In this document: piece by piece, positions 1 through 21,843 of the stretch
Layout of the letters: the number at the start of each line of letters is the position of its first letter
How positions within the stretch are numbered: position 1 is the stretch's first letter
Origin: a virus
Lineage: Duplodnaviria; Heunggongvirae; Uroviricota; Caudoviricetes
Length of the DNA stretch: 40,486 bases
IMG/VR virus record: IMGVR_UViG_2526164661_000012
Direction: 5' to 3' (one strand)
Program-made: the position numbers and the translations under genes
The notes under the pieces: generated by a model
Told to the model about the DNA's origin: nothing
Database searches by the model: none
What the model saw: only the letters and a program-made list of their open reading frames with translations

Positions 1-1053
1 TTACGGGGTAATGCCAACCGCTGCCGCCACTTTGTCGCCACTTGGCAGCGTTGCCAGAGGATTGAAACGGAGCGCCGTTTCCAGATGATCCGGTGCCAGA
101 TGTGCGTAACGCATCGTCATTTTTATATCGTGATGTCCGAGAATTTTTTGTAAGGCCAGGATGTTTCCACCCGACATCATGAAGTGCGCCGCAAACGTAT
201 GGCGCAGAACGTGTGTGAGTTGACCGCGAGGGAGCACGATAGACGTTTTTTCCATCACGGATAAAAATTGAAAATAGCAGTCTGTGAAGAAATTGAACCC
301 ATCAAGCGCCATGATCTCTTCGTAAAGCTCTTTACTGATAGGGATGCTTCTGTTTTTCTTCCCCTTCGTTCTTACAAATGTAATTCGGTATTTGGTCACC
401 TGTGAACGAGTAAGATTTACGGCTTCTCGCCAGCGTGCGCCTGTGCTTAAGCATATCTTAACTACCAGTGCCAGAATTGGGTCCTGACGTTTGCAATCAG
501 CCAGTAATTCAACAATCTGCTCATGGGTAAGCCATGCCATCTCTTTTTCAGCGATGGTGAATTTTCGCATGTTCTCCAGTGGGTTCGGATACGACCATTC
601 GCCCAGGCGGGATAGTTCGCTAAAAACACTACTAAGATAGCTTTGCTCCAGGTTAATGGTGACCGGGCTTGCTCCTTTCTTCCATTTTTCGCTGAAGTAG
701 ATCTCTCCTGTCAGGCGTTTATCTCGATAGTGGGCAAACATTTTAGAGGTGAGATCGGTTGCAAGGGGATTGCCCAGAGCGTCAACTATCAACAGCAATT
801 TGTCATAGACATGCTGCCCAGCTGTCAGAGATTTACCATGTAGTTTGAACCATAGCTCAACCACGTCTTTCAGTGTTCGACGATCCACTGATTCACCCAG
901 CCAGGGCTTTGCTTCGGTTTCTTCCATCGTGTGACGCTCAAAAGCCAGAGCTTCACCTTTGGTGGCGAATTGTTTACGCACACGACGTCCACTACGTCCC
1001 GCGGGGTAACATTCGCATAGCCATTTTCCTGTGGTGAATTTTCGTACTGCCAT
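1..1053 (-). CDS. int: Tyrosine integrase, P2/186 family
   Basis: ORF track 1..1131 minus; likely start Met at 1053 (MAVRKFTTGKW...); C-terminal catalytic region (LRHTFAAHFMMSGG...KMTMRYAHL) typical of tyrosine recombinases; stop codon at 1..3; sits at prophage edge as in P2/186. Confidence 0.9.
   Translation of the reverse strand: MAVRKFTTGKWLCECYPAGRSGRRVRKQFATKGEALAFERHTMEETEAKPWLGESVDRRTLKDVVELWFKLHGKSLTAGQHVYDKLLLIVDALGNPLATDLTSKMFAHYRDKRLTGEIYFSEKWKKGASPVTINLEQSYLSSVFSELSRLGEWSYPNPLENMRKFTIAEKEMAWLTHEQIVELLADCKRQDPILALVVKICLSTGARWREAVNLTRSQVTKYRITFVRTKGKKNRSIPISKELYEEIMALDGFNFFTDCYFQFLSVMEKTSIVLPRGQLTHVLRHTFAAHFMMSGGNILALQKILGHHDIKMTMRYAHLAPDHLETALRFNPLATLPSGDKVAAAVGITP
19..40. repeat. 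Putative attL core (cgctgccgccactttgtcgcca), 21/22 identical to 37633..37654
   Basis: Direct repeat found by eye at both prophage ends; overlaps 3' end of int, as in P2-like phages; flanks on either side do not match. Confidence 0.55.
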
Positions 1054-1142
1054 AAAAAATGCCCTCCAGTGGAGAGCATTTTTACTGTATGTATAACCAG
1101 TGTCAATGTATATGAATTGAGATTCATACATTGAGGTTAATT

Positions 1143-1631
1143 TTATCTTTCTACTTCCCAGCGTAGAGATTGCATTAACATAGCATAAATATTGAACAGG
1201 AAAGTTTTTAAAGTTAATACAAGGAACACTGCACTGCTTCCTACGAGTATATATAGTATTTGAACTCCAACAACTTTAGTGCAATGAGAAAACATTAAGG
1301 CTCTGAGTAATTTTGTAGCCAATCCATTTTCTTGCCCGAAAAGAAGGACTAAAAGATAGATAACAGACCAAAATATGAAATATATAAATACTCTCATAAA
1401 TACGCCATAAACATATTTTAAGTAACTTATCCCGTATAATGGATGCTTATACTCCATTAATGAAAGGAAAAGTTCAGGTTTATTTATGGTTGCAAATATT
1501 GTAAATCCAGTAATTAAAAAACCTAATGTTGTTGTAGTGAATCCGAATACTAAAGGTGTCCATTGTCTAATAGATGAAATTAACTCTGGTGATGAAGATA
1601 GACAAAAAGCATTAATAGATAATAATATCAC
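1143..1631 (-). CDS. Hypothetical multi-pass membrane protein (lysogeny-operon cargo)
   Basis: 162-aa ORF in AT-rich DNA; several hydrophobic segments (LVFGFTTTTLGFLITGFTIFATI, IYFIFWSVIYLLVLLF, ILYILVGSSAVFLVLTL); same strand as cI and int. Confidence 0.55.
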   Translation of the reverse strand: MILLSINAFCLSSSPELISSIRQWTPLVFGFTTTTLGFLITGFTIFATINKPELFLSLMEYKHPLYGISYLKYVYGVFMRVFIYFIFWSVIYLLVLLFGQENGLATKLLRALMFSHCTKVVGVQILYILVGSSAVFLVLTLKTFLFNIYAMLMQSLRWEVER

Positions 1632-1748
1632 TAATAATAATGTGAAATAAAAGTCAAATGAATTGACCTTTATTTTTTAGTTAATTTGTAAACATCATGC
1701 AAAGATCGCTCTTTGGTCAGATCTTCTGGGTTGAATGTATATTTCATA

Positions 1749-2213
1749 CTATAGCCACCTAGAAATTATTGATGTTAACTTGGAAAAAATTTTAGTATAA
1801 TCTTCACGTTCTGGAATAATAATATTTCCTGCATCCTTTAATTCTGTGAATGCAGAATACGCCTCTTGAGCAGCTCTTTCCAAATCAGAACTAAGTTGTG
1901 GCCTTGATGCTTTTAGAGTAAAACTATCATTATTCCCTGATAGCCTTGCTCCGTGTTCATCTTTACCACTTATAATTACTTTAGAGTTGGCCATTCGGGT
2001 TGCACTTGTTGTTTTTTGAATGACGGCCTCAGAATTTAAACCATCTTCATTTTTATTTGTGTATACTAATTGAGCTTTACTACTATTAAGTTCTTCTTTT
2101 TCTTGTTCAATTTTCCTCCAGAAGCCATCAAGAGATATATTTTCACTATTTGTTGGCAATAACTCAATTGATAATCTATTAACAACAGAAAAGAGTTCAA
2201 CAAAATTGCTCAA
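1749..2213 (-). CDS. Hypothetical protein (lysogeny-operon cargo)
   Basis: 154-aa ORF in AT-rich DNA, co-oriented with cI/int; no recognisable motif. Confidence 0.5.
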   Translation of the reverse strand: MSNFVELFSVVNRLSIELLPTNSENISLDGFWRKIEQEKEELNSSKAQLVYTNKNEDGLNSEAVIQKTTSATRMANSKVIISGKDEHGARLSGNNDSFTLKASRPQLSSDLERAAQEAYSAFTELKDAGNIIIPEREDYTKIFSKLTSIISRWL

Positions 2214-2257
2214 TGATCTTGGGTCTGTTAAGGGGGTAACCCGTAATTTGGGGGCTC

Positions 2258-2797
2258 CTAGTTTACGATAAATATCTTTTTTATACAGTCGATCAATGTA
2301 TGATTTTTTCTTTCTAATTCTTTTATTTTTTTTACTTCGTAATCCACAAAAGAATTATATCGCTGTGCAAGGCAATACTTGCTAGTATTTTCAAATTCTT
2401 CTAGGGTAGGGGCTCCAGAAACCTCTTTGCAAAGCATTAATCTGTGCTCATTAAGCATAAGAATAAAAATAGAGCTGGGGTGACTTTCTAGCGTCCTGTG
2501 ATCTCGAATTAATTGACCATCTTGAAATATTTGATCTCGTTTAAATATGGTCTTTTTTATAATGCGGCCACACAATGCAATTGTTGGAACTATAGGACCA
2601 ATAAAATCTGAATCTGTAGTATCTAACGTAATAATTTTTGTGTCAGTAAAGAAATATTCTGTATCTTTAAATTTTCTAACGTATTTTTGTGCGAAAAATG
2701 AAGGAAAAACAATGCAATCAAAAGCATCTAAGAGAACTTTGTCCTCTCCAAAATTTAAGGTATAGTTTGCAAATTCAATAGTTTTCGTAAAGCTCAT
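2258..2797 (-). CDS. Hypothetical protein (lysogeny-operon cargo)
   Basis: 179-aa ORF starting 2 nt after the stop of the repressor gene (2800), implying co-transcription; AT-rich; no recognisable motif. Confidence 0.55.
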   Translation of the reverse strand: MSFTKTIEFANYTLNFGEDKVLLDAFDCIVFPSFFAQKYVRKFKDTEYFFTDTKIITLDTTDSDFIGPIVPTIALCGRIIKKTIFKRDQIFQDGQLIRDHRTLESHPSSIFILMLNEHRLMLCKEVSGAPTLEEFENTSKYCLAQRYNSFVDYEVKKIKELERKNHTLIDCIKKIFIVN

Positions 2798-2799
2798 TG

Positions 2800-3741
2800 T
2801 TAAACCCTTTTTCTAATTATTCCTTTAACTTTATTATTAAATTCCAAATCTTCTTTATCGCATTCAAAGCTATATTTTGTGTTTTCAACGCGGATGCGAT
2901 TGTTTGGAAGTTTAAATATGTCTCTAAAAGTAAATTCTCCGTTAATAGATACTAACCATAGACCATCGCTAAGATACTCCTCTTTGCTAATGATATATGA
3001 ATCATTTGCGGAATTAACTATATAGGGATGTTTTAAATTTTGAGGTAAAATTTCGCTCGAAACGATTAATTCTCTTTGATCAGTAAGTTTGCCGTCACGT
3101 AGATCATAGCAGTCTAATGTAAGCAACCCACTTAGCTTTGTTTGATTGGAATGCCCCTTACCAAAAGATAACCACTCGAGAGACACTCCTGTTTCTAAAC
3201 AGCATTGGATGATCCAGTCTGCCGGAAAAATGTCTCGCATGTATCGTGTAGCTAATGTGCTTTTTGAGATACCAAGGTGATCGGCTAAGGCTTGGCGCGT
3301 TTTGTAACCGTAAGCCTTAACAATTCGCTCTATTGCTGCTTTACCCCCTCGAGTGAAATCCATGTGGTTTTCATTATCGAACTTTATCGTGGGGGTGTGA
3401 ACTTCATTGCAAAATTCATCTGCAGACTGTTTTTCAGCATGCCGTTCTGGCGAAGGAGCTGGCACTCCTTCTTCAGCATCTAAACCAAATGCTAACCATT
3501 CGATTGATGCGCCAGTTTCCATTGAACATATAACAACCCAATCAGCAGGGAAGGTATCGCGTGCATATCTGTTAGCCATTGTACTTTGTGAAATACCAAG
3601 GTGGTTACAGAATGCTTGGCGTGATTTGAAACCATAGGCCATGAGTATTCTCTCAATGACTTTTTGCCCTCCTCGATTCTGCATGACCATGGCTTTCAGA
3701 TGATCTTCAATATGGCGAAATGTGATTTTATTAGTTGACAT
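2800..3741 (-). CDS. cI: CI-type immunity repressor with tandemly duplicated HTH domain and S24/LexA-like C-terminal domain
   Basis: 313 aa; two homologous HTH repeats (GGQKVIERILMAYGFKSRQAFCNHLGISQSTMANRYARDTFPADWVVICSMETGASIEWLAFG vs GGKAAIERIVKAYGYKTRQALADHLGISKSTLATRYMRDIFPADWIIQCCLETGVSLEWLSFG); C-terminus aligns by eye to the LexA S24 domain (SINGEFTFRDIFKLPNNRIRVEN vs ARIDDEVTVKRLKKQGNKVELLPEN); divergent from apl/cII and co-oriented with int. Confidence 0.7.
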   Translation of the reverse strand: MSTNKITFRHIEDHLKAMVMQNRGGQKVIERILMAYGFKSRQAFCNHLGISQSTMANRYARDTFPADWVVICSMETGASIEWLAFGLDAEEGVPAPSPERHAEKQSADEFCNEVHTPTIKFDNENHMDFTRGGKAAIERIVKAYGYKTRQALADHLGISKSTLATRYMRDIFPADWIIQCCLETGVSLEWLSFGKGHSNQTKLSGLLTLDCYDLRDGKLTDQRELIVSSEILPQNLKHPYIVNSANDSYIISKEEYLSDGLWLVSINGEFTFRDIFKLPNNRIRVENTKYSFECDKEDLEFNNKVKGIIRKRV

Positions 3742-3763
3742 ATTCTTTATGCGAACCTATTCT
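3735..3763 (+). promoter_or_regulatory. Sigma70-like promoter (TTGACA-17 nt-TATTCT) reading toward apl/cII (lytic pR-like)
   Basis: Consensus -35 hexamer with 17-nt spacer and TAnnnT -10 read by eye; -35 overlaps the repressor start codon; about 60 nt upstream of the apl-like ATG. Confidence 0.4.
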
Positions 3764-3829
3764 CCGTTTTGTGAAGTTTTCGTCACGATTAATACCGGCT
3801 CACCACAAGCCAATAGGAGATGTTGCATC

Positions 3830-4051
3830 ATGACCCCTAACATTTCAATAACTCTGAATACGCCGCACGTCACAATTGAGCGTTATAGCGAACTTACTGG
3901 TCTTTCTATCGACACAATCAACGATATGCTGGCTGATGGTCGCATCCCTCGTCATCGCCTTCGGAAAGACAAGAAAAGAGAAAAGGTAATGATCAACCTT
4001 GCTGCTCTTACCGTTGATGCACTTACTGATTGCAATGTTGTATTCAACTAG
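3830..4051 (+). CDS. Apl/Cox-like small DNA-binding protein (putative excisionase / lysis-lysogeny regulator)
   Basis: 73-aa product from internal Met of ORF 3722..4051 ([10 protein letters not shown]...), AGGAGA Shine-Dalgarno upstream; first gene of the rightward operon immediately before cII, the position of apl in 186 and cox in P2. Confidence 0.55.
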
Positions 4052-4083
4052 TTCCATTTTGGGATACATCAGGGGTGTCGACT

Positions 4084-4593
4084 ATGTTTGATTACCAAGT
4101 TTCCAAACATCCACATTTTGATGAAGCCTGTCGTGCATTCGCGCTGCGCCACAACCTGGTGCAACTGGCAGAACGTGCTGGCATGAATGTGCAGATTCTG
4201 CGGAACAAGCTGAACCCGGCTCAACCTCATTTATTAACCGCACCAGAAATCTGGCTGCTTACCGATCTGACTGAAGATTCAACGCTGGTAGATGGTTTTC
4301 TGGCTCAGATTCACTGCCTGCCATGCGTACCGATTAATGAGGTGGCAAAAGAGAAACTGCCACATTACGTCATGAGTGCAACCGCAGAGATCGGGCGTGT
4401 TGCTGCAGGTGCGGTATCTGGCGATGTAAAAACCAGTGCAGGTCGTCGTGATGCTATCAGCAGCATTAACTCTGTAACACGACTGATGGCGCTGGCGGCT
4501 GTTTCATTGCAGGCCCGTTTACAGGCTAATCCTGCGATGGCGAGTGCAGTTGATACCGTGACTGGCCTCGGTGCTTCATTCGGTTTGCTGTGA
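4084..4593 (+). CDS. cII: CII-like lysogeny establishment activator (186 CII family)
   Basis: 169 aa from internal Met ([45 protein letters not shown]...); recalled close similarity to coliphage 186 CII; position after apl. Confidence 0.75.
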
Positions 4594-4600
4594 GGTGCTT

Positions 4601-4774
4601 ATGCTTACTAAAGAACCATCATTTGCATCGCTGCTGGTAAAACAAAGTCCGGCAATGCACTACGGTCACGGCTGGATCATGGGGGAGGATGGTAAACGCT
4701 GGCATCCGTGCCGTTCACAAGATGAATTGCTGGCAGAACTATCTACGAAAAAAGGGGGAACAAATGGCTATTGA
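4601..4774 (+). CDS. Hypothetical small early protein
   Basis: 57-aa ORF (MLTKEPSFASLLVK...) with GAGGTG Shine-Dalgarno; overlaps next gene start; position corresponds to 186 fil/dhr region but no similarity established. Confidence 0.35.
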   Translation: MLTKEPSFASLLVKQSPAMHYGHGWIMGEDGKRWHPCRSQDELLAELSTKKGGTNGY

Positions 4775-5406: not shown

Positions 5407-5633
5407 TGGCTGATGCAATGGATCTCGTACAGCAGCGCGTTGAAGAAGAACGCCAGCGTCATATCCGTGCTGCCCGTGCCAAAACGCCGGGAGTGTCCCG
5501 CGTGCTTTGCGTTGAGTGTGAAGCGCCAATTCCGCCAGCACGCCGCCGTGCCATTCCGGGTGTGCAACTTTGCATTACCTGTCAGGAAATCGCAGAGCTG
5601 AAAGGCAAACATTACAACGGAGGTGCTGTATGA
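5406..5633 (+). CDS. TraR/DksA-family C4 zinc-finger protein
   Basis: 75 aa with CxxC...CxxC (CVECEAPIPPARRRAIPGVQLCITC), typical of phage TraR-like proteins (P2 orf82-like). Confidence 0.7.
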   Translation: MADAMDLVQQRVEEERQRHIRAARAKTPGVSRVLCVECEAPIPPARRRAIPGVQLCITCQEIAELKGKHYNGGAV

Positions 5634-6483
5634 GCACCATCCTGAAATGGGCGGGAAATAAAACTGCCATAATGTCCGAACTGAAAAACATCTTCCTGCT
5701 GGCCCGCGACTGGTTGAACCTTTCGCGGGTTCCTGTGCTGTGATGATGGAGACGGATTATCCCAGCTATCTGGTTGCGGATATTAATCCTGATTTAATCA
5801 ACCTCTATAAAAAGGTTGCCGCTGATTGTGAATCGTTTATATCTCGCGCCAGAGTTTTATTTGAGATCGCAAACAGGGAGGTGGCTTATTACAACATAAG
5901 GCAGGAGTTTAATTACTCAACTGAAATTACTGATTTCATGAGAGCGGTATATTTCCTGTATCTCAATCGTCACGGTTACCGTGGTTTATGTCGCTATAAC
6001 AAGAGCGGGCATTTCAACATTCCCTACGGTAATTATAAAAATCCGTATTTCCCTGAAAAAGAAATTCGCGCATTTGCAGAAAAGGCCCAGCGAGCAACGT
6101 TTATCTGCGCCAGCTTTGATGAAACGCTGGCGATGTTGAAGGCGGGGGATGTGGTGTATTGCGATCCGCCGTATGACGGTACGTTTTCCGGCTATCACAC
6201 TGATGGTTTCACTGAAGATGACCAGTATCACCTGGCATCCGTTCTTGAACATCGAGCATCTGAAGGACATCCGGTCATTGTTTCTAACAGTGACACGTCT
6301 TTGACCCGGTCTCTTTATCGTAATTTCACTCACCACTACATCAGGGCGAAACGCAGCATCGGCGTTGCAGCGGGGGAGGGAAAATTTGCAACAGAGATGA
6401 TTGCCACTAAATCTGCTAATTGGTTTAGTGCCGATTTTAGTAGGGGACGTGACTCTACTGTTATTTTCGGGGTGCAAGTGTGA
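5630..6483 (+). pseudogene. dam: DNA adenine methyltransferase (Dam-like, DPPY motif), N-terminal ~19 codons out of frame
   Basis: ORF 5740..6483 carries the DPPY catalytic motif (VYCDPPYDG) but lacks the N-terminus; ATG at 5630 (ATGA overlap with upstream stop) encodes MSTILKWAGNK... and runs to a stop at 5741..5743; adding one A to the A5 run at 5684..5688 restores ...SELKKHLPAGPRLVEPFAGSCAV..., the AdoMet-binding motif. Confidence 0.75.
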
Positions 6484-20944: not shown

Positions 20945-21383
20945 ACTGCAGAAGGTGGACGACTGGCTTAGTGCCTTACTGGCGAATCTGGAACCAGTCG
21001 CAAGAAGCCGCATGATGCGCCAGCTGGCGCAGGAACTGCGCCGGACACAGCAGCAGAATATCAGGATGCAGCGCAATCCAGATGGCAGCAGTTATGAACC
21101 GCGCAAGGTCACGGCGCGCAGTAAAAAAGGCCGCATCAAACGTCAGATGTTTGCAAAGCTGCGCACCACCAAATACCTGAAAACCGCCGCCAGCGCCGAC
21201 TCTGCCAGCGTACAGTTTGAAAGTAAGGTGCAGCGCATTGCCCGCGTTCACCATTATGGCCTGCGCGATCGCGTCAGCCGCAAAGGACCGGAAGTGCGTT
21301 ACGCAGAGCGTCGTTTGTTGGGTCTTAATGGTGAGTCTTACGTTCTAACTCTTGATATATTGAATAGATTCCTTCTGTCTTGA
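20937..21383 (+). CDS. S: Tail completion protein gpS-like
   Basis: 148 aa, GTG start overlapping R stop; MAELQKVDDWL... resembles P2 S by recall. Confidence 0.75.
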   Translation: MAELQKVDDWLSALLANLEPVARSRMMRQLAQELRRTQQQNIRMQRNPDGSSYEPRKVTARSKKGRIKRQMFAKLRTTKYLKTAASADSASVQFESKVQRIARVHHYGLRDRVSRKGPEVRYAERRLLGLNGESYVLTLDILNRFLLS

Positions 21384-21843
21384 ATTCACCATATGCCCAA
21401 TGAATTGCATTTTTTTGTTCAGTCAGAATATATTTCCTAACTTTTTTAGAATAGTGAATGGTCAGTATAAAACCCAAAGAAATCCATAATAGAATAAATA
21501 TGGTTGTTGGGGCAAAGGAATAGATAAAGAATTTGTCTTTAACGAAATTCTTGACTTCTTCATCAATGTAAGCATTCCCTTCATCAGTGGTTAGTAGTTT
21601 ACAAAGAATTTCTTTATGCTCGATAGTTAATGATTTGTACTTCTCTGTACTGGCAGAGGATGACTCTTCGCAATCATCCTTTGATATTTCCCAATCAGGA
21701 GTGGTTAATATTGTAGCTGCAGTCGCCAGTTTTTTTGACATATAAAATGATTCACCGGATTTTATCCAATAAAGCAATGTGCTATTTGGTGGGGTTCTAA
21801 TGGCTTGGATGAAAACTGGACCAAAAATATAAATTGCACACAA
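21325..21843 (-). CDS. Hypothetical membrane protein in AT-rich insert between S and V
   Basis: 172-aa ORF (true start may be the internal Met MSKKLATAAT...); one strong hydrophobic helix (FFIYSFAPTTIFILLWISLGFILTI); opposite strand to the late operon. Confidence 0.4.
   Translation of the reverse strand: MCAIYIFGPVFIQAIRTPPNSTLLYWIKSGESFYMSKKLATAATILTTPDWEISKDDCEESSSASTEKYKSLTIEHKEILCKLLTTDEGNAYIDEEVKNFVKDKFFIYSFAPTTIFILLWISLGFILTIHYSKKVRKYILTEQKNAIHWAYGEFKTEGIYSIYQELERKTHH

Follow-up and report, generated by a model that had tools for sequence, protein, structure and literature searches.

A probable RexAB-type gene pair between the repressor and integrase genes of a 186/P2-like Escherichia coli prophage

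The interval between the CI repressor and integrase genes in the DNA analysed here (IMG/VR record IMGVR_UViG_2526164661_000012; 40,486 nucleotides, hereafter the window) probably represents a two-gene RexAB-type cassette, carried as cI–int cargo (1143–2797) by a 186/P2-like (Peduoviridae) prophage of E. coli. We infer a defence role for this cassette, for which the most fitting description is an exclusion or abortive-infection module of the prophage with its effector in the membrane. As written in the window, both of its genes are frameshifted and, judged by the reading frames, the cassette is inactive. An initial annotation of this locus had proposed a new exclusion or defence module. Its description as AT-rich, mobile cargo of the lysogenic operon with a membrane protein stood, while the claim of novelty did not: the cassette, with its RexAB-type features, is probably a relative of a long-known phage-exclusion system and neither a new kind of defence nor a three-gene module.

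With regard to the layout of the locus (Table 1), CI is the first gene of the leftward (lysogenic) operon on the minus strand, and the integrase gene is the last in the same-strand block; the integrase frame is open over 1–1131, its real start being the ATG listed in the table. CI was identified by Pfam matches to Phage_CI_repr (E=2.5e-57, in two stretches) and Phage_CI_C (E=1.3e-19), and its counterpart is labelled 'phage repressor protein CI' in the records of relatives. The ORF listing recovered the three minus-strand ORFs that the initial annotation had placed between the repressor and int, and the coordinates agreed with its statement that the first of them starts 2 nt past the repressor stop. 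Equally borne out was the AT-rich composition of the cargo relative to the phage core, the GC content being 0.26–0.35 across 1050–3150 compared to about 0.45–0.55 on either side. From geometry only (same strand, gaps of 2 nt and 1 nt between successive genes), we infer that the cassette is co-transcribed with CI; a promoter and terminator scan of 900–4200 gave no signal above shuffled expectation.

Table 1. Positions of the features of the cI–int region in the window.
Feature	Position	Strand	Basis
P2-type tyrosine integrase, 350 aa from ATG at 1053	1..1053	(-)	Pfam Int_N + Phage_integrase; annotation of relatives
Exchangeable immunity block, CI + cargo	1110..3733	(.)	blastn homology boundaries
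Gene B, predicted four-transmembrane partner (201 aa if intact); the 162-aa ORF is its remainder	1143..1747	(-)	
162-aa ORF	1143-1631	(-)	six-frame ORF listing
T6 run (coding A6; intact A7), frameshift site of the partner gene	1673..1678	(-)	
Gene A, RexA-like by predicted fold (349 aa if intact), split into 179-aa + 154-aa ORFs	1749..2797	(-)	
154-aa ORF	1749-2213	(-)	six-frame ORF listing
179-aa ORF	2258-2797	(-)	six-frame ORF listing
T8 run (coding A8; intact A9), frameshift splitting the RexA-like gene	2326..2333	(-)	
CI repressor, 186 type, 313 aa	2800..3741	(-)	Pfam + annotation of relatives

Two further observations concern the neighbours of the cassette. CI consists of two tandem Phage_CI_repr HTH domains (approximately residues 21–92 and 135–197) followed by the CI C-terminal domain, and the 186-type CIs found in this slot elsewhere are 189–203 aa long, with one HTH only; the double HTH looks like a duplication of the N-terminal domain, which could change operator recognition. 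The 89-nt gap from the stop of the partner gene to the start of int contains a short imperfect inverted repeat at about 1105–1131 (core TATGAAT/ATTCATA), and a CTCCAcTGGAG palindrome followed by a T run lies just upstream of the int ATG (1054–1075). The repeat and the palindrome might be regulatory or terminator-like elements for int.

The comparison of the cassette with its closest relatives showed two genes where three had been counted. Megablast of 1100–2850 retrieved 11 complete E. coli chromosomes (98.2–99.9% identity), and blastn of the same stretch retrieved 13 Klebsiella phage records (99.1% identity). The matching interval measures 1753 bp in 24 of 24 near-identical public records, compared to 1751 in the window. 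There, gene A encodes a 349-aa protein (WP_040038354.1), named 'DUF4747 family protein' or 'hypothetical', and gene B, which starts 1 nt past the gene A stop, encodes a 201-aa protein (WP_001556498.1). Examples of the intact cassette are those of E. coli 98193 (NZ_CP173591.1, 527629–529285) and of Klebsiella phage 4LV2017, in which gp02 is followed by an ORF lacking annotation. When 1100–2850 was compared base by base with two E. coli copies, the sole differences were T7->T6 at about 1672 and T9->T8 at about 2325, so that the window ORFs are split by 1-nt deletions. The A8 tract of gene A lies inside a Lys-rich segment (VKKNKRIRKKK), and, reading back from the 154-aa ORF, no stop interrupts the frame as far as 2324, at the run; this frame is an exact continuation of the 349-aa sequence. 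In the window, gene B starts at 1747, and a stop ends it once 25 codons have been read; the 162-aa ORF lacks the greater part of the first transmembrane helix. This last ORF, which had been described as a multi-pass membrane protein, is indeed strongly hydrophobic, but it is only the remainder of the 201-aa four-transmembrane gene.

In view of this comparison, we regard it as extremely improbable that the locus holds three separate cargo genes making up a prophage defence system not known before. Three ORFs are physically present, and PADLOC and NCBIfam gave no match and Pfam none that was significant. Against this stand the two-gene organization of every near-identical record, the fact that only 1-nt homopolymer deletions set the window apart and that the frames join across both of them, and the RexA fold predicted for the intact first protein. 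Homopolymer frameshifts can thus make two genes look like three novel ORFs. The two genes themselves are real and not chance ORFs, because their homologues (32–77% identity) form a conserved pair in many bacteria.

The likeness to RexA was found at the level of predicted structure. Foldseek of the model of the intact gene A protein (pLDDT 81.9, pTM 0.83) against the PDB returned lambda RexA (8TWQ) as the sole significant match (E=6.7e-6, prob 1.00), the next match having E=0.07. The model comprises an N-terminal beta-rich domain (1–131), a second alpha/beta domain (183–298) and C-terminal helices, and the order of its secondary-structure elements agrees with the RexA layout as described; an added long, very basic Lys-rich helix (residues 132–164) is where the A9 tract falls. 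The global TM-score against RexA was low (0.31–0.36), which fits a different inter-domain angle and the extra Lys-rich helix, yet it shows real divergence too. According to this model, the product of gene A is soluble and shares its two-domain fold with lambda RexA, contrary to the initial statement that no match to Rex could be made.

Sequence searches gave no comparable result. Neither the fragments nor the intact proteins matched the Pfam models of RexA (PF15969) or RexB (PF15968) at E<=1, lambda RexA and RexB themselves matching their own models at E=1e-97 and E=8.5e-92, respectively. Comparison by hhalign of gene A family profiles (24 and 114 sequences) with lambda RexA was not significant (Prob 1.6%), and a low-stringency alignment of the two was collinear and likewise not significant. 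Nothing was found by phmmer and profile searches of PDB sequences with gene A, PADLOC-DB v2, searched up to E<=10, matched none of the fragments and neither intact protein, and the NCBIfam scan of the cassette proteins gave none. The DUF4747 model (PF15931) matched the C-terminal fragment only (17.3 bits, E=0.0035, compared to a gathering cut-off of 27 bits) and, at E<=0.1, no full-length family member among the 34 scanned (24 close, 10 distant). About one third of the gene A homologues carry precomputed (weak) PF15931.11 matches, and some bear the name 'DUF4747 family protein' in RefSeq and UniRef. The only other match of gene A in the PHROGs scan was phrog_10040, of unknown function, and Pfam scans of the fragments and the intact protein gave no sign of an enzymatic toxin domain. 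The initial remark that the ORFs show no recognisable motif or catalogued match therefore held for PADLOC and NCBIfam, as well as for Pfam, with its sub-threshold DUF4747 match only. Of the HMM and structure searches proposed with it, the sequence profiles gave no significant match, whereas Foldseek of the gene A model found RexA.

The second protein is predicted to be a four-helix inner-membrane protein. Its AF2 model (pLDDT 81.8) and its hydropathy agree on four long hydrophobic helices (30–50, 53–88, 109–137 and 155–200), preceded by approximately 30–32 N-terminal residues that are predicted to be soluble. Strongly conserved motifs mark helix 2 (LGFLIxGFTIF), helix 3 (LKY...FMxVFI) and the end of the protein (KxFxFNIY...RWE). 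The hhalign comparison of the gene B profile with RexB was not significant (Prob 0.15%), and Foldseek of the model against the BFVD viral models gave nothing significant (best E=0.41); the second-ranked model (E=1.3, also non-significant) was a 165-aa Sbash protein, which has the length reported for the RexB-like gp31. The partner protein of the Pseudomonas putida system could likewise not be linked to RexB by HHpred.

Both genes belong to a conserved and mobile pair. The set of gene A homologues comprised 25 clusters, of which 24 were aligned. With a profile search the family grew to 126 clusters (90% identity) from Gamma- and Betaproteobacteria; at 50% identity, 702 clusters (E<=1e-3) were counted, nearly all of them 320–350 aa long. 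This uniform length, together with many invariant residues, indicates purifying selection. In eight of eight contexts, a gene A homologue (35–44% identity) was followed by a gene B homologue (32–45%) at a distance of -8 to +3 nt. Enterobacter and Serratia 186-like prophages again hold the pair between CI (different single-HTH alleles) and int, and no prophage immunity region could be recognised around it in Pseudomonas, Pseudoalteromonas, Vibrio and a Rhodocyclales genome, where it lies in non-prophage islands. In every host examined, the cassette is AT-rich compared to its surroundings.

The cI–int slot, in turn, is a site of variable cargo. In blastn comparisons with Klebsiella phage KP12 and an Enterobacter prophage, homology ended at about 1109–1111 and resumed at about 3734–3782; these breaks on either side of CI and cargo indicate that both are exchanged as one block. 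The contents of the slot differ among other relatives of the integrase: KP12 carries another CI and a 558-aa ATPase there, a Yersinia phage has a 185-aa protein of no known function between CI and int, and the slot of Vibrio phage kappa/K139 holds kp3 and glo, the latter annotated as 'involved in phage exclusion'. The slot of ST258-KPC3phi16.1 is empty. As a side observation, the KP12 protein (1765–3441, in a phage with a 98% identical integrase) is annotated as a 'chromosome segregation ATPase', and it is probably another defence cargo. The cI–int interval of K139-like (P2-related) phages has been described as a defence hotspot in a preprint by Rousset et al. (10.1101/2021.01.21.427644). The glo locus of K139/kappa and this Vibrionaceae hotspot resemble the present locus in the cI–int slot itself, the lysogenic strand and the variable exclusion or defence cargo; however, the proteins encoded by glo and by the other slot cargo are unrelated to those of the window cassette, and the hotspot was described for K139-like Vibrio phages, whereas the window belongs to an enterobacterial 186-like lineage. 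The present results would add the enterobacterial cI–int slot to the known prophage defence hotspots.

The position of gene A directly downstream of CI, and its exchange together with the CI allele as one block, could also be taken to mean that the RexA-like protein mainly serves the lysis–lysogeny switch of the prophage itself, with defence being secondary or absent. A second, switch-biasing function of lambda RexA is documented (PMC11077077): the protein tips the switch towards the lytic state, and does so without RexB. We consider such a role an unlikely main function here. The A–B pair also occurs outside prophages and without CI, in Pseudomonas, Pseudoalteromonas, Rhodocyclales and Vibrio, which argues against a purely switch-related role; moreover, the pair is found with three different CI alleles, and the membrane partner is always retained.

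Elsewhere in the window, two more intervals differ from the closest complete E. coli prophage. The 10.3–13.1 kb interval does not align with that prophage and holds different cargo, namely a 176-aa ORF without a family match (10535–11065, minus strand) and one of 360 aa whose C-terminal part is Peptidase_M48-like (11783–12865, plus strand); the closest complete prophage encodes an AIPR family protein at the equivalent place, flanked by its DinI-like and portal genes. A 172-aa ORF (21325–21843, minus strand) with a DUF6216 match (E=4.3e-10) lies on the opposite strand between tail/virion morphogenesis and baseplate genes, and a different hypothetical gene occupies this position in the closest complete prophage. 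The right end of the window (33208–40486) aligns at 97.4% with the same prophage over the tape-measure end, a tail gene, late control D and ogr, and the aligned counterpart extends into genes of the E. coli chromosome (ybjL, ybjM and grxA); the window therefore comprises an integrated prophage and host flank. In related genomes, the prophage lies between rcdA and ybjL.

In order to place the two frameshifts in context, indels between the window and this closest complete prophage, from a related E. coli, were compared over well-aligned parts only. Every clean indel was a 1-nt deletion in the window within an A/T run of at least 6, and the five sites were 1672, 2325, 4747, 5683 and 30809. The deletion at 4747 disturbs the Fil/DUF5347 overlap region, that at 5683 disturbs the start of the Dam methylase (ORFs 5570–5743 and 5740–6483), and that at 30809 splits the essential tail-sheath gene into 112 and 278 aa (30486–30824 and 30821–31657). 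Since deletions also affect these three further phage genes or gene regions, part of the window's frameshifts is probably sequencing error, and the window deletions probably reflect, at least partly, undercalling of homopolymers.

Frameshift alleles at the two tracts nevertheless recur in other assemblies. NCBI and Logan assemblies hold the exact 179-aa truncated product in 30 index blocks, representing at least 24 contigs. At five loci from different assemblies, A9->A8 was the only homopolymer indel in 5–6 kb of 98.8–99.5% identical DNA, and one of these five clean A8 loci came from a different host background. Relatives with A9 exist for each of the SNP backgrounds, three or more in number, on which the A8 allele of gene A was seen. 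For the partner gene, tract lengths of A6 (window), A7 (most records) and A8 (+1; three contigs) were observed, and in diverged homologues of gene A, a run of 6–9 A recurs at the same Lys-rich position. Sequencing error as the sole cause of the frameshifts was considered and rejected: the five window deletions fit it, but clean independent assemblies share A8. Judged by these alleles, both poly-A tracts are real mutational hotspots, and the tracts of genes A and B may be hypermutable or phase-variable. That the A9 and A7 tracts are functional slippage sites, making the cassette a phase-variable abortive-infection system or one tuned by transcriptional slippage, is a rather speculative extension to which we assign a low probability; if it were true, lysogen populations could switch a costly sensor on and off or set the ratio of sensor to effector.

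These alleles also bear on two other accounts of the cassette. With both window genes frameshifted and frameshift alleles recurring in other assemblies, the pair could be a decaying or non-defence moron, such as an addiction module, a membrane conversion factor or a pseudogenised remnant that no longer has a function. This seems improbable to us: intact copies predominate, in 11 of 11 complete E. coli genomes and 13 of 13 phage records, and the approximately 700 clusters at 50% identity bear the marks of purifying selection described above. The second account draws on the skew of the alleles, which are commoner in gene A (at least 24 contigs) than in gene B (three). A more frequent frameshift in gene A might be expected if A carried the cost, as it would if the antiviral or toxic activity lay in the soluble RexA-like protein and its membrane partner did no more than sequester or temper it. 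Such an arrangement has been described for gp30/gp31 of mycobacteriophage Butters, which have a similar two-gene architecture (PMC7542560, PMC12894663). On the other hand, four of the five RexAB-type systems described have their membrane protein as effector (PMC12894663), and the gene A sequence gives no indication of an enzymatic toxin domain; we give this arrangement little credence for the present cassette.

We favour the reading in which the membrane partner is the effector. In this proposal, which is modelled on lambda RexAB, CarolAnn gp44/43, Sbash gp30/31 and RexABpp of P. putida, the A–B pair would be co-transcribed with CI in the lysogen. When another phage infects, the RexA-like protein would sense a phage product or a DNA–protein intermediate and, once triggered, would activate the membrane partner. 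The latter would then compromise the membrane, with growth arrest and an aborted infection as the outcome. No experimental test of the enterobacterial cassette turned up in the literature searches.

Should experiments bear this out, RexAB-type abortive infection would reach, with the cassette, the P2/186-like prophages of E. coli, Klebsiella, Enterobacter and Serratia. The RexAB type would also gain a family of approximately 700 clusters in Gamma- and Betaproteobacteria that is missed by current Pfam, NCBIfam and PADLOC models and whose first protein is recognisable by fold alone. This would be a sixth RexAB-type lineage and the first borne by P2-like phages, a 2026 paper having counted five.

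Compared with lambda RexA and RexB, the cassette shows no detectable sequence similarity (Pfam, hhalign). Its A protein is 70 aa longer than RexA, with the extra Lys-rich helix (132–164), and its B protein is 57 aa longer than RexB, with a soluble N-terminal extension of approximately 30 aa; moreover, lambda RexAB belongs to a lambdoid phage, whereas the phage carrying the cassette is P2/186-like. RexABpp (PP_5643/PP_5644) of P. putida prophage P1 is an experimentally validated system, the present cassette a candidate one. Closer in protein size than lambda are the actinobacteriophage-type systems of CarolAnn and Sbash. DUF4747 has been tied to lambda RexA, Sbash gp30, CarolAnn gp44 and Butters gp30, and the RexA-like proteins of Sbash, CarolAnn and Butters are each paired with a four-transmembrane protein (PMC6426596, PMC6426606, PMC7542560). 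CarolAnn gp44/gp43 are co-expressed with the repressor (PMC6426606), and a 'DUF4747/CarolAnn prophage system' has been named as a class (PMC13373217). The CarolAnn (gp44/gp43) and Sbash (gp30/gp31) pairs come from a different host phylum, and no significant sequence link between them and the cassette was found, but they share with it a cytoplasmic protein of 340–370 aa with a weak DUF4747/RexA-like signal and a four-transmembrane partner. Two features of the RexAB-type class, namely the two-domain RexA fold and an adjoining four-transmembrane protein, are predicted for the cassette.
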